Below, one piece after another: positions 1 through 64,000 of a stretch of DNA of 64,000 bases (positions within the stretch are counted from its first letter, which is position 1; each line of letters opens with the position of its first letter). Origin of the DNA: Ophelia neglecta (Eukaryota); NCBI GenBank assembly GCA_965285935.1, contig OZ260662.1, forward strand, positions 70,990,001-71,054,000, in the 5' to 3' direction. The position numbers and the translations under genes were made by a program. The notes below the pieces were generated by a model. It made no database searches. It was given only the letters and a program-made list of their open reading frames with translations, and was not told the DNA's origin.

Positions 1-39
1 TCCTTCGGGGAACACAGGGAATTCTCCGGGTTTAAATTG
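1..39 (-). CDS. A-module second exon, truncated by the window edge
   Basis: Acceptor at 40-41; [13 protein letters not shown]. Confidence 0.8.
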
Positions 40-3000
40 CTACAAAATATTAGTTCGGAATGAATTGTCATATATGCGATTATTTTCACTTTAATGCATG
101 CATTATCTCTAAAATATCACGGTACAGTATTTCCCAAATCGATCATCTATTAGATCTTACATCTGGTTCTTGGTCGCCATCCAGATCTAGAGGTACCCAA
201 GTGGTTGATCCCTCGGGCATAATGTATATTTCAAAGGTGTCAACATTTTCTGTCACAGGAATCAGCTTCCCAAGCTGTGGAGCCTCGGGATAACCATCAC
301 TAGTCAGATCAACTATAATTTCCTTGTTTGGTTCATCAACAGGAATGTTCAATGGGTCATTATCGCTTGGTCTCACAGAGCCGGTGCTCCCGGTAGGCAT
401 GTTAATGTTTTCGTCGGGGATTATTTGTGGATTGTCCATGCCATCTTCAACCGTGCAAGGTCCTTCTGGTAGGCGGATAATCAATTATTGTATTTATGTA
501 CTTTTACAGAATTGCAGAAAGGGTCCGTATTAGTTTGTCCTTTCTCAAGTTAGAAAACTGTTGTTATGTTGATTTTTGATGCAAATATGTTACATCTTGA
601 TAATTGATTACCTGTTGTTGTTTCTGGGGCGGTAGTAGTTCCTGGACTTGTGGTCGATACAGCAGTTGTAGTTCCTGAACAACAATTGTTGTTAGTAAAT
701 AAATAGATTTTTGTTTATGGATAGGTATGGGTGAATGAACTATCTTTAAACATGCATGTAAAAACCTGTATGTAGATAGTTTACTCTCATGCTTAAAATT
801 GGATTCAACGGCAATAGATACACTATCTGACTTTATTCTATGTAGGTGTGTGCTGCGGTGTTTATTCGAGGATGTCTATGAGTTCAAGTTATTTTCAAAT
901 GCGATGCTATGACTTTTATGGTCATGAATGATGAATCATGTTTGTTTCATTACATTCGACATTGTGTTTGATGCATTTCCGACTGCAAAACTGGTTAAAT
1001 ACTAGTATACAGTCAATGCGATAAACATTAACAATACCAAAAGCGAATATATTGCTTGAAACTACAAGGATGAGAACATGTTGGTGAACTGGTGACAGCC
1101 TTTCTTCGAAGAAAAAGGTTATGATCAATCTTCACATTGTCTTATAGACAGAAATACACTACCTGGATGATAACAGGCAGTTAGTTCGAAGGTGATCAAA
1201 ACAGGCAACGTTTCATCTAGAGGGTTGACGACAATTTTAATTTCTTCGGCAAAAGTTCCTTCGGGGAACTCAGGGGCCTCTCCAGGGCTAAATTGCTAAA
1301 AGAACATGTTTGCATATAGACTATTATATGCGATCCGGGTTTTAAATGTTGATACAGTCATTGTCTTTCAAATCAACGAAGCAGTATGTGTGAATGAAGT
1401 GCGTTTTTAAATCTTACATCTGGTTCCCCATCGCCATCAAGATCTAGAGGTATCCATGTTGTTGATCCCTCGGGCATAATGTATACTTCAAAAGTGTCGA
1501 CATTTTCTGTCACAGGAACCAGCTGTCCAAGGCTAGGAGCCCCGGGGTAGCCATCACTAGTCAGGTCAACTACAATTTCCTTGTTTGGTTCATCAGCAGG
1601 TATGGTCAATGGATCGTTATCACCTGGTCTCACAGAGCCGGTGCTTCCGCTTGGCACACTAATATTTTCGTCGGGAAGTATTTGTGGATTATCCATGCCA
1701 TCTTCAATCTGGCAAGGTCCTTCTGCCAGGTGGATATATTATATAAGATTTATGTTTCGGGGTGATTTCGAAGTAAGACATTCACTCATACATTCTACCT
1801 AAATAAATAAACTGTCATGATTCTTGTTTGAGAAAATATGAGATTTTCCAAGAGTAGGTTACCTGTTGTTGTACCCGGGGCAGATGTTGTTCCTGGACTA
1901 GTGGTCGATACTGCTGTTGTAGTTCCTAAGCAATTCAGAATGAATGTCAATCAAGAAACTTGTAATTATATAATGGATTATAAGTGTTAAATGTATCTAA
2001 TGTCAAAACACTTGCAGAGCTGATGATCAATCATTTTAAACTTGTTGGATCAGTAATTGTTCCAGAATGTATGATCTTTTGTGTATATACATTGGTCCCT
2101 TTGGACCATCTAAATTTGAAATATTGTCCATATGACGTTAATGTCATGCGCAACTTTGAAATAGCTGCATTAATATGAAGAGCTAAATCGCCAATTCACT
2201 GGTTGAAAAGAATGGGAATGAATTATATTCTTTTGAGTGAAATAGAAACACTTTTTTCGAGGCAAAAGGGATAGTTTAAAATACACATTGAAGTACACTA
2301 CCTGGATGATAACAAGCTGATAATTCGAAAGTGATCACTACAGGCGATGTTTCATCTACAGGGTCAAGAACAATTTTTACTTCTTCAGCGTATGTTCCTT
2401 CGGGGAATACAGGGGATTCTCCGGGTTTAAATTGCTACAAAATATTAGTTCGGAATGAATTGTCATATATGCGATTATTTTCACTTTAATGCATGCATTA
2501 TCTCTAAAATAACACGGTACAGTATTTCCCAAATCGATCATCTATTAAATCTTACATCTGGTTCTTGGTCGCCATCCAGATCTAGAGGTACCCAAGTGGT
2601 TGATCCCTCGGGCATTATGTATATTTCAAAGGTGTCAACATTTTCTGTCACAGGAATCAGCTTCCCAAGCTGTGGAGCCTCGGGATAACCATCACTAGTC
2701 AGATCAACTATAATTTCCTTGTTCGGTTCATCAACAGGAATGTTTAATGGGTCATTATCGCTTGGTCTCACAGAGCCGGTGCTCCCGGTAGGCATGTTAA
2801 TGTTTTCGTCGGGGATTATTTGTGGATTGTCCATGCCATCTTCAATCGTGCAAGGTCCTTCTGGTAGGCGGATAATCAATTATTGTATTTATGTACTTTT
2901 ACAGAATTGCAGAAAGGGTCCGTATTAGTTTGTCCTTTCTCAAGTTAGAAAACTGTTGTTATGTTGATTTTTGATGCAAATATGTTACATCTTGATAATT

Positions 3001-6000
3001 GATTACCTGTTGTTGTTTCTGGGGCGGTAGTAGTTCCTGGACTTGTGGTCGATACAGCAGTTGTAGTTCCTGAACAACAATTGTTGTTAGTAAATAAATA
3101 GATTTTTGTTTATGGATAGGTATGGGTGAATGAACTATCTTTAAACATGCATGTAAAAACCTGTATGTAGATAGTTTACTCTCATGCTTAAAATTGGATT
3201 CAACGGCAATAGATACACTATCTGACTTTATTCTATGTAGGTGTGTGCTGCAGTGTTTATTCGAGGATGTCTATGAGTTCAAGTTATTTTTAAATGCGAT
3301 GCTATGACTTTTATGGTCATGAATGATGAATCATGTTTGTTTCATTACATTCGACATTGTGTTTGATGCATTTCCGACTGCAAAACTGGTTAAATACTAG
3401 TATACAGTCAATGCGATAAACATTAACAATACCAAAAGCGAATATATTGCTTGAAACTACAAGGATGAGAACATGTTGGTGAACTGGTGACAGCCTTTCT
3501 TCGAAGAAAAAGGTTATGATAAATCTTCACATTGTCTTATAGACAGAAATACACTACCTGGATGATAACAGGCAGTTAGTTCGAAGGTGATCAAAACAGG
3601 CAACGTTTCATCTAGAGGGTTGACGACAATTTTAATTTCTTCGGCAAAAGTTCCTTCGGGGAACTCAGGGGCCTCTCCAGGGCTAAATTGCTAAAAGAAC
3701 ATGTTTGCATATAGACTATTATATGCGATCCGGGTTTTAAATGTTGACACAGTCATTGTCTTTCAAATCAACGAAGCAGTATGTGTGAATGAAGTGCGTT
3801 TTAAAATCTTACATCTGGTTCCCCATCGCCATCAAGATCTAGAGGTATCCATGTTGTTGATCCCTCGGGCATAATGTATACTTCAAAAGTGTCGACATTT
3901 TCTGTCACAGGAACCAGCTGTCCAAGGCTAGGAGCCCCGGGGTAGCCATCACTAGTCAGGTCAACTACAATTTCCTTGTTTGGTTCATCAGCAGGTATGT
4001 TCAATGGATCGTTATCACCTGGTCTCACAGAGCCGGTGCTTCCGCTTGGCACACTAATATTTTCGTCGGGAAGTATTTGGGGATTATCCATGCCATCTTC
4101 AATCTGGCAAGGTCCTTCTGCCAGGTGGATATATTATATAAGATTTATGTTTCGGGGTGATTTCGAAGTAAGACATTCACTCATACATTCTACCCTAATA
4201 AATAAACTGTCATGATTCTTGTTTGAGAAAATATGAGATTTTCCAAGAGTAGGTTACCTGTTGTTGTACCCGGGGCAGATGTTGTTCCTGGACTAGTGGT
4301 CGATACTGCTGTTGTAGTTCCTAAGCAATTCAGAATGAATGTCAATCAAGAAACTTGTAATTATATAATGGATTATAAGTGTTAAATGTATCTAATGTCA
4401 AAACACTTGCAGAGCTGATGATCAATCATTTTAAACTTGTTGGATCAGTAATTGTTCCAGAATGTATGATCTTTTGTGTATATACATTGATCCCTTTGGA
4501 CCATCTAAATTTGAAATATTGTACATATGACGATTATGTCATGCGCAACTTTGAAATAGCTGCATTAATATGAAGAGCTAAATCGCCAGTTCACTGTTTG
4601 AAAAGAATGGGAATGAATTATATTCTTTTGAGTGAAATAGAAACACTTTTTTCGAGGCAAAAGGGATCGTTTAAAATACACATTGAAGTACACTACCTGG
4701 ATGATAACAAGCTGATAATTCGAAAGTGATCACTACAGGCGATGTTTCATCTACAGGGTCAAGAACAATTTTTACTTCTTCAGCGTATGTTCCTTCGGGG
4801 AATACAGGGGATTCTCCGGGTTTAAATTGCTACAAAATATTAGTTCGGAATGAATTGTCATATATGCGATTATTTTCACTTTAATGCATGCATTATCTCT
4901 AAAATAACACGGTACAGTATTTCCCAAATCGATCATCTATTAAATCTTACATCTGGTTCTTGGTCGCCATCCAGATCTAGAGGTACCCAAGTGGTTGATC
5001 CCTCGGGCATTATGTATATTTCAAAGGTGTCAACATTTTCTGTCACAGGAATCAGCTTCCCAAGCTGTGGAGCCTCGGGATAACCATCACTAGTCAGATC
5101 AACTATAATTTCCTTGTTTGGTTCATCAACAGGAATGTTTAATGGGTCATTATCGCTTGGTCTCACAGAGCCGGTGCTCCCGGTAGGCATGTTAATGTTT
5201 TCGTCGGGGATTATTTGTGGATTGTCCATGCCATCTTCAATCGTGCAAGGTCCTTCTGGTAGGCGGATAATCAATTATTGTATTTATGTACTTTTACAGA
5301 ATTGCAGAAAGGGTCCGTATTAGTTTGTCCTTTCTCAAGTTAGAAAACTGTTGTTATGTTGATTTTTGATGCAAATATGTTACATCTTGATAATTGATTA
5401 CCTGTTGTTGTTTCTGGGGCGGTAGTAGTTCCTGGACTTGTGGTCGATACAGCAGTTGTAGTTCCTGAACAACAATTGTTGTTAGTAAATAAATAGATTT
5501 TTGTTTATGGATAGGTATGGGTGAATGAACTATCTTTAAACATGCATGTAAAAACCTGTATGTAGATAGTTTACTCACATGCTTAAAATTGGATTCAACG
5601 GCAATAGATACACTATCTGACTTTATTCTATGTAGGTGTGTGCTGCAGTGTTTATTCGAGGATGTCTATGAGTTCAAGTTATTTTTAAATGCGATGCTAT
5701 GACTTTTATGGTCATGAATGATGAATCATGTTTGTTTCATTACATTCGACATTGTGTTTGATGCATTTCCGACTGCAAAACTGGTTAAATACTAGTATAC
5801 AGTCAATGCGATAAACATTAACAATACCAAAAGCGAATATATTGCTTGAAACTACAAGGATGAGAACATGTTGGTGAACTGGTGACAGCCTTTCTTCGAA
5901 GAAAAAGGTTATGATAAATCTTCACATTGTCTTATAGACAGAAATACACTACCTGGATGATAACAGGCAGTTAGTTCGAAGGTGATCAAAACAGGCAACG

Positions 6001-9000
6001 TTTCATCTAGAGGGTTGACGACAATTTTAATTTCTTCGGCAAAAGTTCCTTCGGGGAACTCAGGGGCCTCTCCAGGGCTAAATTGCTAAAAGAACATGTT
6101 TGCATATAGACTATTATATGCGATCCGGGTTTTAAATGTTGACACAGTCATTGTCTTTCAAATCAACGAAGCAGTATGTGTGAATGAAGTGCGTTTTAAA
6201 ATCTTACATCTGGTTCCCCATCGCCATCAAGATCTAGAGGTATCCATGTTGTTGATCCCTCGGGCATAATGTATACTTCAAAAGTGTCGACATTTTCTGT
6301 CACAGGAACCAGCTGTCCAAGGCTAGGAGCCCCGGGGTAGCCATCACTAGTCAGGTCAACTACAATTTCCTTGTTTGGTTCATCAGCAGGTATGTTCAAT
6401 GGATCGTTATCACCTGGTCTCACAGAGCCGGTGCTTCCGCTTGGCACACTAATATTTTCGTCGGGAAGTATTTGGGGATTATCCATGCCATCTTCAATCT
6501 GGCAAGGTCCTTCTGCCAGGTGGATATATTATATAAGATTTATGTTTCGGGGTGATTTCGAAGTAAGACATTCACTCATACATTCTACCCTAATAAATAA
6601 ACTGTCATGATTCTTGTTTGAGAAAATATGAGATTTTCCAAGAGTAGGTTACCTGTTGTTGTACCCGGGGCAGATGTTGTTCCTGGACTAGTGGTCGATA
6701 CTGCTGTTGTAGTTCCTAAGCAATTCAGAATGAATGTCAATCAAGAAACTTGTAATTATATAATGGATTATAAGTGTTAAATGTATCTAATGTCAAAACA
6801 CTTGCAGAGCTGATGATCAATCATTTTAAACTTGTTGGATCAGTAATTGTTCCAGAATGTATGATCTTTTGTGTATATACATTGGTCCCTTTGGACCATC
6901 TAAATTTGAAATATTGTACATATGACGTTTATGTCATGCGCAACTTTGAAATAGCTGCATTAATATGAAGAGCTAAATCGCCAGTTCACTGGTTGAAAAG
7001 AATGGGAATGAATTATATTCTTTTGAGTGAAATAGAAACACTTTTTTCGAGGCAAAAAGGATCGTTTAAAATACACATTGAAGTACACTACCTGGATGAT
7101 AACAAGCTGATAATTCGAAAGTGATCACTACAGGCGATGTTTCATCTACAGGGTCAAGAACAATTTTTACTTGTCCAGCGTATGTTCCTTCGGGGAACAC
7201 AGGGGATTCTCCGGGTTTAAATTGCTACAAAATATTAGTTCGGAATGAATTGTCATATATGCGATTATTTTCACTTTAATGCATGCATTATCTCTAAAAT
7301 AACACGGTACAGTATTTCCCAAATCGATCATCTATTAAATCTTACATCTGGTTCTTGGTCGCCATCCAGATCTAGAGGTACCCAAATGGTTGATCCCTCG
7401 GGCATTATGTATATTTCAAAGGTGTCAACATTTTCTGTCACAGGAATCAGCTTCCCAAGCTGTGGAGCCTCGGGATAACCATCACTAGTCAGATCAACTA
7501 TAATTTCCTTGTTTGGTTCATCAACAGGAATGTTTAATGGGTCATTATCGCTTGGTCTCACAGAGCCGGTGCTCCCGGTAGGCATGTTAATGTTTTCGTC
7601 GGGGATTATTTGTGGATTGTCCATGCCATCTTCAATCGTGCAAGGTCCTTCTGGTAGGCGGATAATCAATTATTGTATTTATGTACTTTTACAGAATTGC
7701 AGAATGGGTCCGTATTAGTTTGTCCTTTCTCAAGTTAGAAAACTGTTGTTATGTTGATATTTGATGCAAATATGTTACATCTTGATAATTGATTACCTGT
7801 TGTTGTTTCTGGGGCGGTAGTAGTTCCTGGACTTGTGGTCGATACAGCAGTTGTAGTTCCTGAACAACAATTGTTGTTAGTAAATAAATAGATTTTTGTT
7901 TATGGATAGGTATGGGTGAATGAACTATCTTTAAACATGCATGTAAAAACCTGTATGTAGATAGTTTACTTTCATGCTTAAAATTGGATTCAACGGCAAT
8001 AGATACACTATCTGACTTTATTCTATGTAGGTGTGTGCTGCAGTGTTTATTCGAGGATGTCTATGAGTTCAAGTTATTTTTAAATGCGATGCTATGACTT
8101 TTATGGTCATGAATGATGAATCATGTTTGTTTCATTACATTCGACATTGTGTTTGATGCATTTCAAACTGCAAAACTGGTTAAATACTAGTATACAGTCA
8201 ATGCGATAAACATTAACAATACCAAAAGCGAATATATTGCTTGAAACTACAAGGATGAGAACATGTTGGTGAACTGGTGACAGCCTTTCTTCGAAGAAAA
8301 AGGTTATGATCAATCTTCACATTGTCTTATAGACAGAAATACACTACCTGGATGATAACAGGCAGTTAGTTCGAAGGTGATCAAAACAGGCAACGTTTCA
8401 TCTAGAGGGTTGACGACAATTTTAATTTCTTCGGCAAAAGTTCCTTCGGGGAACTCAGGGGCCTCTCCAGGGCTAAATTGCTAAAAGAACATGTTTGCAT
8501 ATAGACTATTATATGCGATCCGGGTTTTAAATGTTGATACAGTCATTGTCTTTCAATTCAACGAAGCAGTATGTGTGAATGAAGTGCGTTTTTAAATCTT
8601 ACATCTGGTTCCCCATCGCCATCAAGATCTAGAGGTATCCATGTTGTTGATCCCTCGGGCATAATGTATACTTCAAAAGTGTCGACATTTTCTGTCACAG
8701 GAACCAGCTGTCCAAGGCTAGGAGCCCCGGGGTAGCCATCACTAGTCAGGTCAACTACAATTTCCTTGTTTGGTTCATCAGCAGGTATGGTCAATGGATC
8801 GTTATCACCTGGTCTCACAGAGCCGGTGCTTCCGCTTGGCACACTAATATTTTCGTCGGGAAGTATTTGGGGATTATCCATGCCATCTTCAATCTGGCAA
8901 GGTCCTTCTGCCAGGTGGATATATTATATAAGATTTATGTTTCGGGGTGATTTCGAAGTAAGACATTCACTCATACATTCTACCTAAATAAATAAACTGT

Positions 9001-12000
9001 CATGATTCTTGTTTGAGAAAATATGAGATTTTCCAAGAGTAGGTTACCTGTTGTTGTACCCGGGGCAGATGTTGTTCCTGGACTAGTGGTCGATACTGCT
9101 GTTGTAGTTCCTAAGCAATTCAGAATGAATGTCAATCAAGAAACTTGTAATTATATAATGGATTATAAGTGTTAAATGTATCTAATGTCAAAACACTTGC
9201 AGAGCTGATGATCAATCATTTTAAACTTGTTGGATCAGTAATTGTTCCAGAATGTATGACCTTTTGTGTATATACATTGGTCTAAATTTGAAATATTGTC
9301 CATATGACGTTAATGTCATGCGCAACTTTGAAATAGCTGCATTAATATGAAGAGCTAAATCGCCAATTCACTGGTTGAAAAGAATGGGAATGAATTATAT
9401 TATTTTGAAAGAAATAGAAACACTTTTTTCGAGGCAAAAGGGATAGTTTAAAATACACATTGAAGTACACTACCTGGATGATAACAAGCTGATAATTCGA
9501 AAGTGATCACTACAGGCGATGTTTCATCTACAGGGTCAAGAACAATTTTTACTTCTTCAGCGTATGTTCCTTCGGGGAACACAGGGGATTCTCCGGGTTT
9601 AAATTGCTACAAAATATTAGTTCGGAATGAATTGTCATATATGCGATTATTTTCACTTTAATGCATGCATTATCTCTAAAATAACACAGTACAGTATTTC
9701 CAAAATCGATCATCTATTAAATCTTACATCTGGTTCTTGGTCGCCATCCAGATCTAGAGGTACCCAAGTGGTTGATCCCTCGGGCATAATGTATATTTCA
9801 AAGGTGTCAACATTTTCTGTCACAGGAATCAGCTTCCCAAGCTGTGGAGCCTCGGGATAACCATCACTAGTCAGATCAACTATAATTTCCTTGTTTGGTT
9901 CATCAACAGGAATGTTCAATGGGTCATTATCGCTTGGTCTCACAGAGCCGGTGCTCCCGGTAGGCATGTTAATGTTTTCGTCGGGGATTATTTGTGGATT
10001 GTCCATGCCATCTTCAATCGTGCAAGGTCCTTCTGGTAGGCGGATAATCAATTATTGTATTTATGTACTTTTACAGAATTGCCGAAAGGGACCGTATTAG
10101 TTTGTCCTTTCTCAAGTTAGAAAACTGTTGTTATGTTGATTTTTGATGCCAATATGTTACATCTTGATAATTGATTACCTGTTGTTGTTTCTGGGGCGGT
10201 AGTGGTTCCTGGACTTGTGGTCGATACAGCAGTTGTAGTTCCTGAACAACATTTGTTGTTAGTAAATAAACAGCATTTTGTTTATTGAAAGGTATGGGCG
10301 AATGAAATATCTTTAAACATGCATGTAAAAACCAGTATGTAGATAGTTTACTCTCATGTATAACATTGGAATCATCGGCAATAGATTCACTATCTGACTA
10401 TATTCTATGTAGGTGTGTACTGCGGTGTTTAGTCGAGGATGTCTATGAGTTCAAGTTGTTTTTAAATGCGATTCTATGACTTTTATGGTTATGAATGATG
10501 AATCATGTTTGTTTCATTACATTCGACATTGTGTTTGATGCATTTCCGACTGCAAAACTGGTTAAATACTAGTATACAGTCAATGCGATAAACATTAACA
10601 ATACCAAAAGCGAATATATTGCTTGAAACTACAAGGATGAGTACATGTTGGTGAACTCGTGACAGCCTTTCTTCGAAGAAAAAGGTCATGATCAATCTTC
10701 ACATTGTCTTATAGACAGAAATACACTACCTGGATGATAACAGGCAGTTAGTTCGAAGGTGATCAAAACAGGCAACGTTTCATCTAGAGGGTTGACGACA
10801 ATTTTAATTTCTTCGGCAAAAGTTCCTTCGGGGAACTCAGGGGCCTCTCCAGGGCTAAATTGCTAAAAGAACATGTTTGCATATAGACTATTCTATGCGA
10901 TCCGGGTTTTAAATGTTGATACAGTCATTATCTTTCAAATCAACGAAGCAGTATGGGTGAATGAAGTGCGTTTTAAAATCTTACATCTGGTTCCCCATCG
11001 CCATCAAGATCTAGAGGTATCCATGTTGTTGATCCCTCGGGCATAATGTATACTTCAAAAGTGTCGACATTTTCTGTCACAGGAACCAGCTGTCCAAGGC
11101 TAGGAGCCCCGGGGTAGCCATCACTAGTCAGGTCAACTACAATTTCCTTGTTTGGTTCATCAGCAGGTATGGTCAATGGATCGTTATCACCTGGTCTCAC
11201 AGAGCCGGTGCTTCCGCTTGGCACACTAATATTTTCGTCGGGAAGTATTTGGGGATTATCCATGCCATCTTCAATCTGGCAAGGTCCTTCTGCCAGGTGG
11301 ATATATTATATAAGATTTATGTTTCGGGGTGATTTCGAAGTAAGACATTCACTCATACATTCTACCTAAATAAATAAACTGTCATGATTCTTGTTTGAGA
11401 AAATATGAGATTTTCCAAGAGTAGGTTACCTGTTGTTGTACCCGGGGCAGATGTTGTTCCTGGACTAGTGGTCGATACTGCTGTTGTAGTTCCTAAGCAA
11501 TTCAGAATGAATGTCAATCAAGAAACTTGTAATTATATAATGGATTATAAGTGTTAAATGTATCTTATGTCAAAACACTTGCAGAGCTGATGATCAATCA
11601 TTTTAAACTTGTTGGATCAGTAATTGTTCCAGAATGTATGATCTTTTGTGTATATACATTGGTCCCTTTGGACCATCTAAATTTGAAATATTGTTCATAT
11701 GACGTTAATGTCATGCGCAACTTTGAAATAGCTGCATTAATATGAAGAGCTAAATCGCCAATTCACTGGTTGAAAAGAATGGGAATGAATTATATTCTTT
11801 TGAATGAAATAGAAACACTTTTTTCGAGGCAAAAGGGATAGTTTAAAATACACATTGAAGTACACTACCTGGATGATAACAAGCTGATAATTCGAAAGTG
11901 ATCACTACAGGCGATGTTTCATCTACAGGGTCAAGAACAATTTTTACTTCTTCAGCGTATGTTCCTTCGGGGAACACAGGGGATTCTCCGGGTTTAAATT

Positions 12001-15000
12001 GCTACAAAATATTGGTTCGGAATGAATTGTCATATATGCGATTATTTTCACTTTAATGCATGCATTATCTCTAAAATAACACGGTACAGTATTTCCCAAA
12101 TCGATCATCTATTAGATCTTACATCTGGTTCTTGGTCGCCATCCAGATCTAGAGGTACCCAAGTGGTTGATCCCTCGGGCATAATGTATATTTCAAAGGT
12201 GTCAACATTTTCTGTCACAGGAATCAGCTTCCCAAGCTGTGGAGCCTCGGGATAACCATCACTAGTCAGATCAACTATAATTTCCTTGTTTGGTTCATCA
12301 ACAGGAATGTTCAATGGGTCGTTATCGCTTGGTCTCACAGAGCCGGTGCTCCCGGTAGGCATGTTAATGTTTTCGTCGGGGATTATTTGTGGATTGTCCA
12401 TGCCATCTTCAATCGTGCAAGGTCCTTCTGGTAGGCGGATAATCAATTATTGTATTTATGTACTTTTACAAAATTGCAGAAAGGGACCGTATTAGTTTGT
12501 CCTTTCTCAAGTTAGAAAACTGTTGTTATGTTGATTTTTGATGCCAATATGTTACATCTTGATAATTGATTACCTGTTGTTGTTTCTGGGGCGGTAGTGG
12601 TTCCTGGACTTGTGGTCGATACAGCAGTTGTAGTTCCTGAACAACATTTGTTGTTAGTAAATAAACAGCATTTTGTTTATTGAAAGGTATGGGCGAATGA
12701 AATATCTTTAAACATGCATGTAAAAACCAGTATGTAGATAGTTTACTCTCATGTATAACATTGGAATCATCGGCAATAGATTCACTATCTGACTATATTC
12801 TATGTAGGTGTGTACTGCGGTGTTTAGTCGAGGATGTCTATGAGTTCAAGTTGTTTTTAAATGCGATTCTATGACTTTTATGGTTATGAATGATGAATCA
12901 TGTTTGTTTCATTACATTCGACATTGTGTTTGATGCATTTCCGACTGCAAAACTGGTTAAATACTAGTATACAGTCAATGCGATAAACATTAATAATACC
13001 AAAAGCGAATATATTGCTTGAAACTACAAGGATGAGTACATGTTGGTGAACTCGTGACAGCCTTTCTTCGAAGAAAAAGGTCATGATCAATCTTCACATT
13101 GTCTTATAGACAGAAATACACTACCTGGATGATAACAGGCAGTTAGTTCGAAGGTGATCAAAACAGGCAACGTTTCATCTAGAGGGTTGACGACAATTTT
13201 AATTTCTTCGGCAAAAGTTCCTTCGGGGAACTCAGGGGCCTCTCCAGGGCTAAATTGCTAAAAGAACATGTTTCCATATAGACTATTCTATGCGATCCGG
13301 GTTTTAAATGTTGATACAGTCATTATCTTTCAAATCAACGAAGCAGTATGGGTGAATGAAGTGCGTTTTAAAATCTTACATCTGGTTCCCCATCGCCATC
13401 AAGATCTAGAGGTATCCATGTTGTTGATCCCTCGGGCATAATGTATACTTCAAAAGTGTCGACATTTTCTGTCACAGGAACCAGCTGTCCAAGGCTAGGA
13501 GCCCCGGGGTAGCCATCACTAGTCAGGTCAACTACAATTTCCTTGTTTGGTTCATCAGCAGGTATGTTCAATGGATCGTTATCACCTGGTCTCACAGAGC
13601 CGGTGCTTCCGCTTGGCACACTAATATTTTCGTCGGGAAGTATTTGTGGATTATCCATGCCATCTTCAATCTGGCAAGGTCCTTCTGCCAGGTGGATATA
13701 TTATAAAAGATTTATGTTTCGGGGTGATTTCGAAGTAAGACATTCACTCATACATTCTACCTAAATAAATAAACTGTCATGATTCTTGTTTGAGAAAATA
13801 TGAGATTTTCCAAGAGTAGGTTACCTGTTGTTGTACCCGGGGCAGATGTTGTTCCTGGACTAGTGGTCGATACTGCTGTTGTAGTTCCTAAGCAATTCAG
13901 AATGAATGTCAATCAAGAAACTTGTAATTATATAATGGATTATAAAAGTTAAATGTATCTAATGTCAAAACACTTGCAGAGCTGATGATCAATCATTTTA
14001 AACTGGTTGGATCAGTAATTGTTCCAGAATGTATGATCTTTTGTGTATATACATTGGTCCCTTTGGACCATCTAAATTTGAAATATTGTTCATATGACGT
14101 TAATGTCATGCGCAACTTTGAAATAGCTGCATTAATATGAAGAGCTAAATCGCCAATTCACTGGTTGAAAAGAATGGGAATGAATTATATTCTTTTGAAT
14201 GAAATAGAAACTTTTTCTAAGAGGCAAAAGGGATAGTTTAAAATACACATTGAAGTACACTACCTGGATGATAACAAGCTGATAATTCGAAAGTGATCAC
14301 TACAGGCGATGTTGCATCTACAGGGTCAAGAACAATTTTTACTTCTTCAGCGTATGTTCCTTCGGGGAACACAGGGGATTCTCCGGGTTTAAATTGCTAC
14401 AAAATATTAGTTCGGAATGAATTGTCATATATGCGATTATTTTCACTTTAATGCATGCATTATCTCTAAAATAACACGGTACAGTATTTCCAAAATCGAT
14501 CATCTATTAGATCTTACATCTGGTTCTTGGTCGCCATCCAGATCTAGAGGTACCCAAGTGGTTGATCCCTCGGGCATAATGTATATTTCAAAGGTGTCAA
14601 CATTTTCTGTCACAGGAATCAGCTTCCCAAGCTGTGGAGCCTCGGGATAACCATCACTAGTCAGATCAACTATAATTTCCTTGTTTGGTTCATCAACAGG
14701 AATGTTCAATGGGTCGTTATCGCTTGGTCTCACAGAGCCGGTGCTCCCGGTAGGCATGTTAATGTTTTCGTCGGGGATTATTTGTGGATTGTCCATGCCA
14801 TCTTCAATCGTGCAAGGTCCTTCTGGTAGGCGGATAATCAATTATTGTATTTATGTACTTTTACAGAATTGCAGAAAGGGTCCGTATTAGTTTGTCCTTT
14901 CTCAAGTTAGAAAACTGTTGTTATGTTGATTTTTGATGCCAATATGTTACATCTTGATAATTGATTACCTGTTGTTGTTTCTGGGGCGGTAGTGGTTCCT

Positions 15001-18000
15001 GGACTGGTGGTCGATACAGCAGTTGTAGTTCCTGAACAACATTTGTTGTTAGTAAATAAACAGCATTTTGTTTATTGAAAGGTATGGGCGAATGAAATAT
15101 CTTTAAACATGCATGTAAAAACCAGTATGTAGATAGTTTACTCTCATGTCTAACATTGGAATCATCGGCAATAGATTCACTATCTGACTATATTCTATGT
15201 AGGTGTGTACTGCGGTGTTTAGTCGAGGATGTCTATGAGTTCAAGTTATTTTTAAATGCGATTCTATGACTTTTATGGTTATGAATGATGAATCATGTTT
15301 GTTTCATTACATTCGACATTGTGTTTGATGCATTTCCGACTGCAAACTGCTAAAATACTAGTATACAGTCAATGCGATAAACATTGACAATACCAAAAGC
15401 GAATATATTGCTTGAAACTACAAGGATGAGGAACATGTTGGTGCACTCGTGACAGCCTTTCTTCGAAGAAAAAGGTTATGATCAATCTTCACATTGTCTT
15501 ATAGACAGAAATACACTACCTGGATGATAACAGGCAGTTAGTTCGAAGGTGATCAAAACAGGCAACGTTTCATCTAGAGGGTTGACGACAATTTTAATTT
15601 CTTCGGCAAAAGTTCCTTCGGGGAACTCAGGGGCCTCTCCAGGGCTAAATTGCTAAAAGAACATGTTTGCATATAGACTATTATATGCGATCCGGGTTTT
15701 AAATGTTGATACAGTCATTATCTTTCAAATCAACGAAGCAGTATGTGTGAATGAAGTGCGTTTTTAAATCTTACATCTGGTTCCCCATCGCCATCAAGAT
15801 CTAGAGGTATCCATGTTGTTGATCCCTCGGGCATAATGTATACTTCAAAAGTGTCGACATTTTCTGTCACAGGAACCAGCTGTCCAAGGCTAGGAGCCCC
15901 GGGGTAGCCATCACTAGTCAGGTCAACTACAATTTCCTTGTTTGGTTCATCAGCAGGTATGTTCAATGGATCGTTATCACCTGGTCTCACAGAGCCGGTG
16001 CTTCCGCTTGGCACACTAATATTTTCGTCGGGAAGTATTTGTGGATTATCCATGCCATCTTCAATCTGGCAAGGTCCTTCTGCCAGGTGGATATATTATA
16101 AAAGATTTATGTTTCGGGGTGATTTCGAAGTAAGACATTCACTCATACATTCTACCTAAATAAATAAACTGTCATGATTCTTGTTTGAGAAAATATGAGA
16201 TTTTCCAAGAGTAGGTTACCTGTTGTTGTACCCGGGGCAGATGTTGTTCCTGGACTAGTGGTCGATACTGCTGTTGTAGTTCCTAAGCAATTCAGAATGA
16301 ATGTCAATCAAGAAACTTGTAATTATATAATGGATTATAAGAGTTAAATGTATCTAATGTCAAAACACTTGCAGAGCTGATGATCAATCATTTTAAACTG
16401 GTTGGATCAGTAATTGTTCCAGAATGTATGATCTTTTGTGTATATACATTGGTCCCTTTGGACCATCTAAATTTGAAATATTGTTCATATGACGTTAATG
16501 TCATGCGCAACTTTGAAATAGCTGCATTAATATGAAGAGCTAAATCGCCAATTCACTGGTTGAAAAGAATGGGAATGAATTATATTCTTTTGAATGAAAT
16601 AGAAACTCTTTCTAAGAGGCAAAAGGGATAGTTTAAAATACACATTGAAGTACACTACCTGGATGATAACAAGCTGATAATTCGAAAGTGATCACTACAG
16701 GCGATGTTTCATCTACAGGGTCAAGAACAATTTTTACTTCTTCAGCGTATGTTCCTTCGGGGAACACAGGGGATTCTCCGGGTTTAAATTGCTACAAAAT
16801 ATTAGTTCGGAATGAATTGTCATATATGCGATTATTTTCACTTTAATGCATGCATTATCTCTAAAATAACACGGTACAGTATTTCCAAAATCGATCATCT
16901 ATTAGATCTTACATCTGGTTCTTGGTCGCCATCCAGATCTAGAGGTACCCAAGTGGTTGATCCCTCGGGCATAATGTATATTTCAAAGGTGTCAACATTT
17001 TCTGTCACAGGAATCAGCTTCCCAAGCTGTGGAGCCTCGGGATAACCATCACTAGTCAGATCAACTATAATTTCCTTGTTTGGTTCATCAACAGGAATGT
17101 TCAATGGGTCGTTATCGCTTGGTCTCACAGAGCCGGTGCTCCCGGTAGGCATGTTAATGTTTTCGTCGGGGATTATTTGTGGATTGTCCATGCCATCTTC
17201 AATCGTGCAAGGTCCTTCTGGTAGGCGGATAATCAATTATTGTATTTATGTACTTTTACAGAATTGCAGAAAGGGTCCGTATTAGTTTGTCCTTTCTCAA
17301 GTTAGAAAACTGTTGTTATGTTGATTTTTGATGCCAATATGTTACATCTTGATAATTGATTACCTGTTGTTGTTTCTGGGGCGGTAGTGGTTCCTGGACT
17401 GGTGGTCGATACAGCAGTTGTAGTTCCTGAACAACATTTGTTGTTAGTAAATAAACAGCATTTTGTTTATTGAAAGGTATGGGCGAATGAAATATCTTTA
17501 AACATGCATGTAAAAACCAGTATGTAGATAGTTTACTCTCATGTCTAACATTGGAATCATCGGCAATAGATTCACTATCTGACTATATTCTATGTAGGTG
17601 TGTACTGCGGTGTTTAGTCGAGGATGTCTATGAGTTCAAGTTATTTTTAAATGCGATTCTATGACTTTTATGGTTATGAATGATGAATCATGTTTGTTTC
17701 ATTACATTCGACATTGTGTTTGATGCATTTCCGACTGCAAACTGCTAAAATACTAGTATACAGTCAATGCGATAAACATTGACAATACCAAAAGCGAATA
17801 TATTGCTTGAAACTACAAGGATGAGGAACATGTTGGTGCACTCGTGACAGCCTTTCTTCGAAGAAAAAGGTTATGATCAATCTTCACATTGTCTTATAGA
17901 CAGAAATACACTACCTGGATGATAACAGGCAGTTAGTTCGAAGGTGATCAAAACAGGCAACGTTTCATCTAGAGGGTTGACGACAATTTTAATTTCTTCG

Positions 18001-21000
18001 GCAAAAGTTCCTTCGGGGAACTCAGGGGCCTCTCCAGGGCTAAATTGCTAAAAGAACATGTTTGCATATAGACTATTATATGCGATCCGGGTTTTAAATG
18101 TTGATACAGTCATTATCTTTCAAATCAACGAAGCAGTATGTGTGAATGAAGTGCGTTTTTAAATCTTACATCTGGTTCCCCATCGCCATCAAGATCTAGA
18201 GGTATCCATGTTGTTGATCCCTCGGGCATAATGTATACTTCAAAAGTGTCGACATTTTCTGTCACAGGAACCAGCTGTCCAAGGCTAGGAGCCCCGGGGT
18301 AGCCATCACTAGTCAGGTCAACTACAATTTCCTTGTTTGGTTCATCAGCAGGTATGTTCAATGGATCGTTATCACCTGGTCTCACAGAGCCGGTGCTTCC
18401 GCTTGGCACACTAATATTTTCGTCGGGAAGTATTTGTGGATTATCCATGCCATCTTCAATCTGGCAAGGTCCTTCTGCCAGGTGGATATATTATAAAAGA
18501 TTTATGTTTCGGGGTGATTTCGAAGTAAGACATTCACTCATACATTCTACCTAAATAAATAAACTGTCATGATTCTTGTTTGAGAAAATATGAGATTTTC
18601 CAAGAGTAGGTTACCTGTTGTTGTACCCGGGGCAGATGTTGTTCCTGGACTAGTGGTCGATACTGCTGTTGTAGTTCCTAAGCAATTCAGAATGAATGTC
18701 AATCAAGAAACTTGTAATTATATAATGGATTATAAGAGTTAAATGTATCTAATGTCAAAACACTTGCAGAGCTGATGATCAATCATTTTAAACTGGTTGG
18801 ATCAGTAATTGTTCCAGAATGTATGATCTTTTGTGTATATACATTGGTCCCTTTGGACCATCTAAATTTGAAATATTGTTCATATGACGTTAATGTCATG
18901 CGCAACTTTGAAATAGCTGCATTAATATGAAGAGCTAAATCGCCAATTCACTGGTTGAAAAGAATGGGAATGAATTATATTCTTTTGAATGAAATAGAAA
19001 CTCTTTCTAAGAGGCAAAAGGGATAGTTTAAAATACACATTGAAGTACACTACCTGGATGATAACAAGCTGATAATTCGAAAGTGATCACTACAGGCGAT
19101 GTTTCATCTACAGGGTCAAGAACAATTTTTACTTCTTCAGCGTATGTTCCTTCGGGGAACACAGGGGATTCTCCGGGTTTAAATTGCTACAAAATATTAG
19201 TTCGGAATGAATTGTCATATATGCGATTATTTTCACTTTAATGCATGCATTATCTCTAAAATAACACGGTACAGTATTTCCAAAATCGATCATCTATTAG
19301 ATCTTACATCTGGTTCTTGGTCGCCATCCAGATCTAGAGGTACCCAAGTGGTTGATCCCTCGGGCATAATGTATATTTCAAAGGTGTCAACATTTTCTGT
19401 CACAGGAATCAGCTTCCCAAGCTGTGGAGCCTCGGGATAACCATCACTAGTCAGATCAACTATAATTTCCTTGTTTGGTTCATCAACAGGAATGTTCAAT
19501 GGGTCGTTATCGCTTGGTCTCACAGAGCCGGTGCTCCCGGTAGGCATGTTAATGTTTTCGTCGGGGATTATTTGTGGATTGTCCATGCCATCTTCAATCG
19601 TGCAAGGTCCTTCTGGTAGGCGGATAATCAATTATTGTATTTATGTACTTTTACAGAATTGCAGAAAGGGTCCGTATTAGTTTGTCCTTTCTCAAGTTAG
19701 AAAACTGTTGTTATGTTGATTTTTGATGCCAATATGTTACATCTTGATAATTGATTACCTGTTGTTGTTTCTGGGGCGGTAGTGGTTCCTGGACTGGTGG
19801 TCGATACAGCAGTTGTAGTTCCTGAACAACATTTGTTGTTAGTAAATAAACAGCATATTGTTTATTGAAAGGTATGGGCGAATGAAATATCTTTAAACAT
19901 GCATGTAAAAACCAGTATGTAGATAGTTTACTCTCATGTCTAACATTGGAATCATCGGCAATAGATTCACTATCTGACTATATTCTATGTAGGTGTGTAC
20001 TGCGGTGTTTAGTCGAGGATGTCTATGAGTTCAAGTTATTTTTAAATGCGATTCTATGACTTTTATGGTTATGAATGATGAATCATGTTTGTTTCATTAC
20101 ATTCGACATTGTGTTTGATGCATTTCCGACTGCAAACTGCTAAAATACTAGTATACAGTCAATGCGATAAACAATGACAATACCAAAAGCGAATATATTG
20201 CTTGAAACTACAAGGATGAGGAACATGTTGGTGCACTCGTGACAGCCTTTCTTCGAAGAAAAACGTTATGATCAATCTTCGCATTGTCTTATAGACAGAA
20301 ATACACTACCTGGATGATAACAGGCAGTTAGTTCGAAGGTGATCAAAACAGGCAACGTTTCATCTAGAGGGTTGACGACAATTTTGATTTCTTCGGCAAA
20401 AGTTCCTTCGGGGAACTCAGGGGCCTCTCCAGGGCTAAATTGCTAAAAGAACATGTTTGCATATAGACTATTATATGCGATCCGGGTTTTAAATGTTGAT
20501 ACAGTCATTATCTTTCAAATCAACGAAGCAGTATGTGTGAATGAAGTGCGTTTTTAAATCTTACATCTGGTTCCCCATCGCCATCAAGATCTAGAGGTAT
20601 CCATGTTGTTGATCCCTCGGGCATAATGTATACTTCAAAAGTGTCGACATTTTCTGTCACAGGAACCAGCTGTCCAAGGCTAGGAGCCCCAGGGTAGCCA
20701 TCACTAGTCAGGTCAACTACAATTTCCTTGTTTGGTTCATCAGCAGGTATGTTCAATGGATCGTTATCACCTGGTCTCACAGAGCCGGTGCTTCCGCTTG
20801 GCACACTAATATTTTCGTCGGGAAGTATTTGTGGATTATCCATGCCATCTTCAATCTGGCAAGGTCCTTCTGCCAGGTGGATATATTATAAAAGATTTAT
20901 GTTTCGGGGTGATTTCGAAGTAAGACATTCACTCATACATTCTACCTAAATAAATAAACTGTCATGATTCTTGTTTGAGAAAATATGAGATTTTCCAAGA

Positions 21001-24000
21001 GTAGGTTACCTGTTGTTGTACCCGGGGCAGATGTTGTTCCTGGACTAGTGGTCGATACTGCTGTTGTAGTTCCTAAGCAATTCAGAATGAATGTCAATCA
21101 AGAAACTTGTAATTATATAATGGATTATAAGTGTTAAATGTATCTAATGTCAAAACACTTGCAGAGCTGATGATCAATCATTTTAAACTGGTTGGATCAG
21201 TAATTGTTCCAGAATGTATGATCTTTTGTGTATATACATTGGTCCCTTTGGACCATCTAAATTTGAAATATTGTTCATATGACGTTAATGTCATGCGCAA
21301 CTTTGAAATAGCTGCATTAATATGAAGAGCTAAATCGCCAATTCACTGGTTGAAAAGAATGGGAATGAATTATATTCTTTTGAATGAAATAGAAACTCTT
21401 TCTAAGAGGCAAAAGGGATAGTTTAAAATACACATTGAAGTACACTACCTGGATGATAACAAGCTGATAATTCGAAAGTGATCACTACAGGCGATGTTTC
21501 ATCTACAGGGTCAAGAACAAGTTTTACTTCTTCAGCGTATGTTCCTTCGGGGAACACAGGGGATTCTCCGGGTTTAAATTGCTACAAAATATTAGTTCGG
21601 AATGAATTGTCATATATGCGATTATTTTCACTTTAATGCATGCATTATCTCTAAAATAACACGGTACAGTATTTCCAAAATCGATCATCTATTAGATCTT
21701 ACATCTGGTTCTTGGTCGCCATCCAGATCTAGAGGTACCCAAGTGGTTGATCCCTCGGGCATAATGTATATTTCAAAGGTGTCAACATTTTCTGTCACAG
21801 GAATCAGCTTCCCAAGCTGTGGAGCCTCGGGATAACCATCACTAGTCAGATCAACTATAATTTCCTTGTTTGGTTCATCAACAGGAATGTTCAATGGGTC
21901 GTTATCGCTTGGTCTCACAGAGCCGGTGCTCCCGGTAGGCATGTTAATGTTTTCGTCGGGGATTATTTGTGGATTGTCCATGCCATCTTCAATCGTGCAA
22001 GGTCCTTCTGGTAGGCGGATAATCAATTATTGTATTTATGTACTTTTACAGAATTGCAGAAAGGGTCCGTATTAGTTTGTCCTTTCTCAAGTTAGAAAAC
22101 TGTTGTTATGTTGATTTTTGATGCCAATATGTTACATCTTGATAATTGATTACCTGTTGTTGTTTCTGGGGCGGTAGTGGTTCCTGGACTGGTGGTCGAT
22201 ACAGCAGTTGTAGTTCCTGAACAACATTTGTTGTTAGTAAATAAACAGCATTTTGTTTATTGAAAGGTATGGGCGAATGAAATATCTTTAAACATGCATG
22301 TAAAAACCAGTATGTAGATAGTTTACTCTCATGTCTAACATTGGAATCATCGGCAATAGATTCACTATCTGACTATATTCTATGTAGGTGTGTACTGCGG
22401 TGTTTAGTCGAGGATGTCTATGAGTTCAAGTTATTTTTAAATGCGATTCTATGACTTTTATGGTTATGAATGATGAATCATGTTTGTTTCATTACATTCG
22501 ACATTGTGTTTGATGCATTTCCGACTGCAAACTGCTAAAATACTAGTATACAGTCAATGCGATAAACATTGACAATACCAAAAGCGAATATATTGCTTGA
22601 AACTACAAGGATGAGGAACATGTTGGTGCACTCGTGACAGCCTTTCTTCGAAGAAAAACGTTATGATCAATCTTCGCATTGTCTTATAGACAGAAATACA
22701 CTACCTGGATGATAACAGGCAGTTAGTTCGAAGGTGATCAAAACAGGCAACGTTTCATCTAGAGGGTTGACGACAATTTTGATTTCTTCGGCAAAAGTTC
22801 CTTCGGGGAACTCAGGGGCCTCTCCAGGGCTAAATTGCTAAAAGAACATGTTTGCATATAGACTATTATATGCGATCCGGGTTTTAAATGTTGATACAGT
22901 CATTATCTTTCAAATCAACGAAGCAGTATGTGTGAATGAAGTGCGTTTTTAAATCTTACATCTGGTTCCCCATCGCCATCAAGATCTAGAGGTATCCATG
23001 TTGTTGATCCCTCGGGCATAATGTATACTTCAAAAGTGTCGACATTTTCTGTCACAGGAACCAGCTGTCCAAGGCTAGGAGCCCCGGGGTAGCCATCACT
23101 AGTCAGGTCAACTACAATTTCCTTGTTTGGTTCATCAGCAGGTATGTTCAATGGATCGTTATCACCTGGTCTCACAGAGCCGGTGCTTCCGCTTGGCACA
23201 CTAATATTTTCGTCGGGAAGTATTTGTGGATTATCCATGCCATCTTCAATCTGGCAAGGTCCTTCTGCCAGGTGGATATATTATAAAAGATTTATGTTTC
23301 GGGGTGATTTCGAAGTAAGACATTCACTCATACATTCTACCTAAATAAATAAACTGTCATGATTCTTGTTTGAGAAAATATGAGATTTTCCAAGAGTAGG
23401 TTACCTGTTGTTGTACCCGGGGCAGATGTTGTTCCTGGACTAGTGGTCGATACTGCTGTTGTAGTTCCTAAGCAATTCAGAATGAATGTCAATCAAGAAA
23501 CTTGTAATTATATAATGGATTATAAGTGTTAAATGTATCTAATGTCAAAACACTTGCAGAGCTGATGATCAATCATTTTAAACTGGTTGGATCAGTAATT
23601 GTTCCAGAATGTATGATCTTTTGTGTATATACATTGGTCCCTTTGGACCATCTAAATTTGAAATATTGTTCATATGACGTTAATGTCATGCGCATCTTTG
23701 AAATAGCTGCATTAATATGAAGAGCTAAATCGCCAATTCACTGGTTGAAAAGAATGGGAATGAATTATATTCTTTTGAATGAAATAGAAACTCTTTCTAA
23801 GAGGCAAAAGGGATAGTTTAAAATACACATTGAAGTACACTACCTGGATGATAACAAGCTGATAATTCGAAAGTGATCACTACAGGCGATGTTTCATCTA
23901 CAGGGTCAAGAACAAGTTTTACTTCTTCAGCGTATGTTCCTTCGGGGAACACAGGGGATTCTCCGGGTTTAAATTGCTACAAAATATTAGTTCGGAATGA

Positions 24001-62997: not shown

Positions 62998-64000
62998 CTG
63001 CGAGTAGTACGTGTATCAATAAACATTGAGATGAGTACTTTCGACTCCTTTGTTTTAAAATGCAATATATTTTAAATGTAGTATGTGTGAAAGGGCTAAT
63101 CAGATAACGATCCCTCAACTGATCCAACCTAAAACTTCCTTGACAAGAAACTACCTTGTGTGAAGCTGTCTTCTTAGATCGATATAACCTACCTCAAACT
63201 AAATCTAAAGGCTCTACGACCGACCCAAGTTGATTACATCGAATGTAAATCAAACATGGATGTGCTTGGATTTAAGTTTTATATTTTGGGAATATGCTGT
63301 CAACACACCTGCTCTCGATAGATCAAGGCGGCTAACAATTGACAGTTCTCAATATTATATTTTCTGCTTATTTCCAAAAGTTAAACTTTTTTTTTTAAAT
63401 GTGCGCCTCCTAACGAGAAAAAATGCCCTGTATTTATATGAACTATCGTATTTAATGCCGTGGCAATCATGAGTAACTATTTAGATAAAAAAAGAATCCT
63501 TTCGGGTTACATTCTAAATATCCGTCGTAGATTCACTTCGGGTCATTCAATTTAAATATGTTTAGATTGAAGGAGTGTTGGCAATCTTACCAGATTGCTT
63601 TAAACCATGACACAGCTGGACATGGACAATGAAAGGCTCAACCTGTCTAAATGTGGTCACTTTAAAAACAAACCATTCACAGGCCTTTTTTAAATTAGAC
63701 AACCAATGACCTTCGATGCCTATACCGAATGACTTCCAAATAATTGATTTATAGACAAGGTGTAGTTGACATGGCTTCATTGACAGAGAAGCCTGGAGTG
63801 TGACTGGGACATTAAACAGAACACAGTCACTATAGACACGTGTTTCGATTGAAAGCGACAATGCTTGATAGTGTTTGGATTGAAGGCGACAATGATTGAT
63901 AGTTCTCTAATTGGATTTGTTTGATAGACAAGTCCGTAGAATTACAGAATAGGTATACAAAAGTATCATTAAGTATAGAAAAATGGTAACACGCATGGTG

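Follow-up and report, generated by a model that had tools for sequence, protein, structure and literature searches.

The window analysed here comprises 64,000 nucleotides of Ophelia neglecta (assembly GCA_965285935.1, contig OZ260662.1, below C2, positions 70,990,001 to 71,054,000) and contains a tandemly repeated coding unit, which raises the question of which fold the encoded domain adopts and what a long string of such domains may do in a protein. A preliminary description had placed the repeated 146-residue unit at 1163..1722 and had interpreted it as a strongly acidic, highly divergent discoidin/F5-8 type C (F5/8C) domain with exactly two Cys residues, one at each end, altered specificity and possibly a place in an unnamed subfamily. 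The coordinates proved exact. Two exons on the minus strand, exon B (1722-1418, 305 nt, with a CAG acceptor and a GTAAGA donor) and exon C (1295-1163, 133 nt, with a TAG acceptor and a GTAGTG donor), give exactly 146 codons together with the last base of the preceding linker exon and form a phase 1-0-1 module. The linker exon itself (1863..1925, minus strand, 63 nt, 21 codons, phase 1-1) encodes a Pro/Thr/Ser stretch. Exon B, here in its A variant, encodes residues 1-102 and thereby about the first two thirds of the predicted jelly roll, whereas exon C encodes residues 103-146 with the final predicted strands and the Cys at the end. That the exons are joined in this way is suggested by their splice signals and by colinear homologues encoded in single ORFs. 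The unit contains 30 Asp and Glu residues against 3 Lys and Arg, as well as 1 Trp, 3 Tyr, 5 Phe and 20 Pro. Its Cys residues are located at positions 4 and 143 only (codons 1712..1714 and 1173..1175, minus strand, computed from the exon start), and all motifs quoted earlier are present in the translation.

By exon mapping, the array occupies positions 1..48005 of the window (minus strand) with 35 B exons, 34 complete C exons and 34 complete units. A search of the genome with exon B gave 69 matches, all in one stretch of C2, and the array extends to the left to approximately C2:70,950,450, with 68 B+C units in total. All 68 have AG/GT ends, are free of stop codons and encode 146 amino acids with Cys4 and Cys143, so that the earlier statement about the two cysteines applies to every copy. 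Provided that all exons are used, the coding length of the array is about 11,800 residues. The units fall into 40 copies of an A variant and 28 copies of a B variant and encode 22 distinct proteins. A B-variant unit lies at 2302..2860 (minus strand), with exon B at 2860-2556 and exon C at 2434-2302, and the A and B variants take turns in a repeat of 2,395 bp. This regular two-variant repeat was observed from 161 to 25864 of the window and onward to C2:70,950,450. The same period also appears in a tandem joint from the contigs of three runs, which represent one sample and contain no splice joints. At 1735-1854 of the window the contigs of all three runs include a form missing 118 bases of the intron between linker and exon B; because of this skip, some copies or alleles may deviate from the assembly at this position.

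Among 87 linker exons 84 have AG/GT ends and no stop, and Pro, Thr and Ser make up 74% of the encoded residues. One linker exon (37399-37461) has lost its acceptor (TAG to TAT). The 5′ part of the array (27250..49357, minus strand) was found by mapping to contain extra linker exons and, interspersed with intact A units, 18 truncated remnants of exon B (27313-49357). In 13 remnants the acceptor is lost (AG to AC), and in five it is retained, four of the latter lying at 27313-32424. The linker exons of the remnants stay intact, and thus dead beads leave doubled or tripled linkers.

Copies of the repeat are 98-99.5% identical in introns and exons overall, and copies of the A variant reach 99.5% in exons and 98.2% in introns. 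Between the A and B variants identity is 80-85% in exons and 50-65% in introns, with a dS of 0.56, a dN of 0.10 and a dN/dS of 0.18. The excess of dS over dN and the higher identity of exons than of introns between the variants indicate purifying selection on the exons. Since copies are nearly identical and yet the variants differ at this dS, homogenisation of the array appears to act within variants and not between them. The near-identity of A-variant copies and the dead exon remnants would also be expected if the array were mostly non-functional or inflated, by satellite-like amplification or by an assembly artefact, with its exons largely skipped; furthermore, the copy number rests on the assembly and the runs used for comparison stem from one sample. 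Nevertheless, all 68 units are intact including their splice ends, the dN/dS is low, 22 protein variants are distinguished and the same domain is tandemly repeated in a chiton protein, so that we regard such an origin of the array as very improbable.

Homologues were identified by a phmmer search with exon B against 1.84 billion representatives, which gave 22 hits. Four of these are bacterial proteins with Ig-like, FG-GAP or MAM-like domains; they were rejected as compositional matches and, because of these domains, left out before any alignment or count. One true hit carries a name (XP_064614628.1, a mucin-2-like protein of the chiton Liolophura sinensis). Whole domains inside single ORFs are present in this protein and in two unnamed proteins, and the spliced unit is colinear with such intact homologues from Cys to Cys at 25-32% identity. 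Against a profile of nine intact homologous domains the spliced unit scored 59.2 bits and exon C alone 18.9 bits. The maxima of shuffled sequences were 8.6 bits (280 of 300 reported) and 4.6 bits (259 of 300 reported), respectively, which excludes a chance match between the unit and its homologues. A profile search returned 12 short proteins, seven of them new. Two weak searches for long homologues yielded none among 173 candidates and, after scoring of 7,989, one protein that had already been found; one homologous domain gave no match in the own genome in a search too weak to show absence. An FG-GAP/integrin blade fold, suggested by weak Pfam rows, was rejected, as the match covers a 10-residue acidic motif only.

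The chiton protein resembles the host protein in the tandem arrangement of a Pfam-negative domain between Thr/Pro-rich linkers, with approximately 30-32% identity over most of the unit. It differs in its longer linkers, an extra Cys and the lack of a Dx[DN]xDG loop, and at the domain level it is unannotated. The Pfam family of canonical F5/8C domains, PF00754, was not matched above the cut-off by exons B and C (scanned singly), the 22 search hits or the 20 alignment members, nor by the 12 short proteins from the profile search. There was no PF00754 match in the array region either; at least 84 matches in the genome, with 150 of 555 candidates scored, lie elsewhere.

Discoidin (DS) domains are described as eight-stranded barrels whose termini a conserved disulfide holds together and whose top carries the ligand loops (PMC4332414, PMC3320712). 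The preliminary description had named structure prediction and Foldseek as a check on the proposed fold. AlphaFold2 and Foldseek were applied to an intact homologous domain and to exon B, and the homologue, about 29% identical to the unit, was predicted as a galactose-binding-like jelly roll consisting mainly of strands (pLDDT 87.8, pTM 0.83, from a 20-row alignment). Foldseek returned 49 hits for this model at E ≤0.001, including IFT25, APC10/DOC, CBM32, fucose-binding modules and factor VIII C domains. In a VIA-align comparison with 48,161 chains the best 50 matches have Z 10.0-12.0 and are mostly to galactose-binding-like folds (CBM32, F5/8C, DOC, IFT25). The top entry was 4zxe (Z 12.0, rmsd 3.1, 119 aligned), followed by 4a42 (Z 11.8) and IFT25 (Z 11.6). 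Neuropilin-1 b1 reached Z 11.5 (rmsd 3.2, 125 aligned, model residues 1-145 on 273-428) and DDR1 Z 11.1 (1-145 on 30-189), and the scores of CBM32, IFT25, neuropilin-1 and DDR1 are to be read as ties. With an ESM Atlas model of this homologue, F5/8C clusters were matched at TM 0.63-0.71; six of ten rows aligned on PF00754, and one exceeded the naming bar.

The model of exon B from the window (pLDDT 75) has little assigned secondary structure. With this model, animal F5/8C entries took ranks 1-16 in VIA-align over the N-terminal two thirds of each domain, at Z 4.7-5.5; since these values are low and even the best may, according to the tool, reflect a common arrangement, the ranking alone was used. 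Foldseek gave no hit at E ≤0.001 for the exon-B model, and ESM Atlas no usable hit for exon B. Searches with family profiles reached E 0.0086 and 0.0072 for CBM32 4a42 and E 1.0 for factor V, and profile-profile comparison by hhalign against the canonical F5/8 exons of the own genome was not significant (1.4-1.5% probability).

The gene structure provides an independent hint at kinship. The intron between exons B and C has a phase-0 donor 12 codons past the conserved Trp. Among 12 canonical F5/8 exons of the own genome, eight have a phase-0 donor-like site 5-12 codons past the Trp, three read through and one was mis-anchored. A phase-1 acceptor just ahead of the first Cys was seen in all three canonical exons examined. 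The splice sites of the canonical exons are predicted and some of the loci are near-identical; within this frame, phase and position of the introns in the unit resemble those of canonical F5/8C genes. The two models of the homologue, the ranking of the exon-B model, the weak CBM32 hit and the intron placement all bear out the fold proposed at the outset, and the unit very probably folds as a discoidin/F5-8 C jelly roll, the full-domain model being that of the homologue. From the end-to-end alignment with domains having disulfide-linked termini, a disulfide between Cys4 and Cys143 would be expected to close the unit.

The branch of this fold to which the unit belongs was considered separately. 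On the full model CBM32, IFT25 and DOC/APC10 are level with or above animal F5/8C in Foldseek and VIA-align, IFT25 and APC10 leading in the former and CBM32 in the latter; the sole sequence hit below E 0.01 is bacterial CBM32, and PF00754 is not matched. The unit could thus have its galactose-binding-like jelly roll from outside the animal F5/8C branch, from a CBM32-, DOC/APC10- or IFT25-like lineage. However, the two best CBM32 rows begin at model residue 13 only, whereas the rows of animal F5/8C domains cover residues 1-145, and the exon-B model ranks animal F5/8C first. CBM32 (4a42, 4zxe, 2v72), DOC/APC10 and IFT25 share the superfamily fold, with tied or best scores and a weak sequence hit to 4a42, but their best rows lack the N-terminal Cys segment and they occur in a bacterial or intracellular context. 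The Cys-x4-Gly start, the terminal Cys, the intron placement and the F5/8C slot of this class of mucins suit animal descent. Thus, the unit probably descends from the animal F5/8C branch, and we consider a different lineage improbable.

Comparison with animal F5/8C domains (neuropilin-1 b1, 2qqi and 4gz9; DDR1/DDR2, 4ag4 and 7azb; factor V C2, 1czs; factor VIII C1, 7kwo; CASPR2, 5y4m) shows how far the unit has diverged. Shared are the jelly roll predicted from end to end (with the homologue model at Z 10-11.5), the terminal Cys, the Cys-x4-Gly start and the similar intron placement. The unit differs by an identity of 12-17%, the absence of a PF00754 match, trimmed loops, a strongly acidic character, an added Dx[DN]xDGxxD loop and a Thr in place of the Arg before the last strand. 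Because it fails both the Pfam and the loop test, it was filed as an unnamed divergent subfamily and not as a member of PF00754, as the preliminary description had suspected; neither the array nor the homologues match that family. No description of this subfamily was found in the literature searched, which covered few subscription journals.

The ligand site of DS domains is formed by the top loops L1-L4 (PMC4332414). Two top-loop segments comprise 5 and 4 residues in the unit, compared to 17-18 and 10 in three canonical domains; the loop anchors were placed visually, and two of these references are near-identical. These segments are also short in intact homologues (5-9 and 4). With its loops trimmed, the unit is more likely to have lost the classical site than to have acquired the altered specificity suggested earlier. 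The Trp before the second strand, kept in two of three anchored intact homologues, is Leu in the unit. Position six before the last Cys is Thr in the unit and Arg in two of five homologous domains; we take this position to be the register of factor VIII R2320/R2163. In factor VIII these two Arg residues are tied to lipid binding (PMC9643838). The ratio of acidic to basic residues is 30:3 in the unit vs. 7-12:6-12 in five canonical pieces, and this composition argues against carbohydrate binding via aromatic and basic residues.

The last residues encoded by exon B of the A variant (94-102; 1418..1444, minus strand) form a Dx[DN]xDGxxD motif of the calcium-binding type, which abuts the phase-0 intron. 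A calcium loop is defined in PMC3123361 by Dx[DN]xDG and an Asp further downstream, and the A variant fits this definition, including the downstream Asp and the extracellular setting. The collection in that paper already includes one galactose-binding-like context, a gingipain adhesin; the motif of the unit is located neither in a propeller blade nor in an EF-hand, and the word discoidin does not occur in the text of the paper. The strict motif with a downstream Asp or Glu is present in 40 of the 68 copies, and the other 28, the B variant, carry Gln for Gly. In shuffled sequences the motif arises at a rate of 0.0014. Six of 25 homologues have the strict motif, some homologues ending before the site, and it was detected neither in the chiton homologue nor in the two other intact homologues. 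In a tree of 26 rows a relaxed motif occurs in 11 of the 18 rows that make up one side of a split (support 94/99, not starred) and in none of the eight on the other side, which includes the chiton.

The exons of the host gene all lie on the same strand over about 173 kb and presumably join into one transcript. Pfam was applied to 34 exon ORFs picked by hand and to the ORFs of the window. In this set the gene starts with a weak EMI match, EGF, a weak TB match, three VWD-C8-TIL units and four LDLa ORFs, which are followed by about four Pfam-negative Cys-bracketed domains, the 68-unit array, a second array, TSP1, TIL and a cystine knot. The weak TB-domain match (C2:71,063,521-71,063,868; E 0.0011, below the cut-off) has the EGF exon on one side and the first VWD exon on the other. 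The TIL-domain exon that closes the third VWD-C8-TIL unit (62807..63193, minus strand) and the four Pfam-positive LDL-receptor class A ORFs (60839..62393, minus strand) are within the window, and the VWD units lie to its right. The approximately four further acidic two-exon domains (54139..60627, minus strand, from ORFs and Pfam) are possibly more distant jelly rolls. For the single upstream domain at 57049-57336 and for the domain of the second array, sequence comparison established no tie to F5/8C or to the unit.

The second tandem array (C2:70,897,800-70,947,000, left of the window) has 15 first exons and a period of about 3.1 kb. Thr/Pro exons of up to about 200 residues alternate there with another Cys-bracketed Pfam-negative domain, and a single relative of this domain is located at 54729-55043 of the window.

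According to Pfam the gene follows the plan of a gel-forming mucin, with three VWD-C8-TIL units, LDLa repeats, TSP1 and a C-terminal cystine knot, and its domain content identifies it, at the level of predicted exons, as a giant SCO-spondin-like mucin gene. For chick SCO-spondin (Q2PC93) EMI, three VWD, one FA5/8C, LDLa, TIL, TSR, VWC, EGF and CTCK domains are listed (PMC8487547). An EMI-like/EGF start, three VWD, TIL, LDLa, TSP1, a cystine knot and an F5/8C-type domain are common to both proteins. The chick protein contains a single FA5/8C besides 13 LDLa and 27 TSR (PMC8487547), whereas the host has 68 divergent F5/8C-like beads plus the second array, and four LDLa and two TSP1 Pfam-positive ORFs. 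Lang et al. describe hemolectin with F5_F8_type_C domains after three VWD-C8-TIL units and consider F5_F8_type_C characteristic of lophotrochozoan mucin-like proteins (PMC4948705). In that account these domains are detectable by Pfam and hemolectin carries two further VWD units. The host differs in having LDLa and TSP1 and a far higher copy number, and no VWD exon was seen among its C-terminal ORFs scanned. Neither the F5/8C fold nor its occurrence in SCO-spondin and in the mucins of lophotrochozoans is therefore new (PMC4948705, PMC8487547). New are the cryptic acidic form with its calcium-type loop and the 68-fold expansion.

Because of the shortened binding loops and the added calcium-type motif, a structural bead appears likelier than a sugar or lipid binder. 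The reading that we prefer and consider somewhat probable is that the 68-fold acidic 146-residue F5/8C-like module would serve as a calcium-binding structural bead of a SCO-spondin-like mucin and not as a classical lectin or lipid binder. The same fold might still bind a ligand with new specificity, as a lectin, a cationic-protein binder or a self binder, and be displayed 68-fold for avidity. The nearest solved folds indeed include carbohydrate-binding CBM32 and F-type lectin modules, purifying selection holds, and intact homologues partly keep the Trp (two of three anchored cases) and the Arg (two of five domains). The unit of the window has neither of these residues, though, and its one Trp in all, its 3 basic residues and its trimmed top loops make a binder rather unlikely.

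For a structural bead the following mode of action can be envisaged. Polymerisation through VWD units and cystine knots is established for VWF-type proteins (PMC8487547), and the corresponding parts of the host may, with about even chances, polymerise the secreted chain as in other gel-forming mucins. The middle of the chain would then consist of disulfide-closed acidic beads, which act as spacers on short, probably O-glycosylated linkers. Ca2+ bound at the acidic surface and in the Dx[DN]xDGxxD loop could stiffen the beads and screen their charge, and would thereby tune packing and cross-linking of the gel. By analogy, the beads may be paralleled with the CysD domains of vertebrate mucins. 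A more specific version of the structural-bead reading, which we consider less likely than not, is a Pfam-invisible branch of animal discoidin domains that shed its ligand loops, had a Dx[DN]xDG loop grafted on and now acts as a calcium-switched cross-linking bead of giant SCO-spondin-like mucins. If this is true, many invertebrate mucins would have strings of such domains as their unannotated middle parts, with a length of about 11,800 residues in the present case.

SCO-spondin-like proteins are reported from the adhesive and pedal mucus of limpets (PMC7333891) and from annelid radial glia (PMC5543218). The occurrence in adhesive mucus, together with the calcium-type loop and an excess of 27 acidic over basic residues per unit, would also fit beads that chiefly bind mineral or metal, in the cementing of tube, shell or sediment, and do not tune a gel. 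We consider this quite improbable, as the sole named homologue is annotated as mucin-2-like and the host gene is built like a gel-forming mucin. That the limpet sequences P-vulgata_3 and P-vulgata_6 might be two ends of one such gene is not supported by the published table, in which both have stops and their FPKM values are 2 vs. 1147 (PMC7333891).

The analysis provides a fold and a testable calcium hypothesis for a domain that escapes Pfam and makes up the unannotated central part of giant invertebrate mucins. It suggests that SCO-spondin-type proteins may lengthen via an amplified F5/8C slot rather than via TSP1 repeats, and if the unit binds calcium, the Dx[DN]xDG loop would be known from one more structural context.

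In the neighbourhood of the host gene, a gene on the minus strand at C2:71,085,300-71,091,240 has, as judged by eye, cysteine-rich exons of lectin-like appearance and a Pro-rich tail. On the other side, recurring translated motifs at C2:70,810,470-70,816,540 correspond to short tandem repeats.
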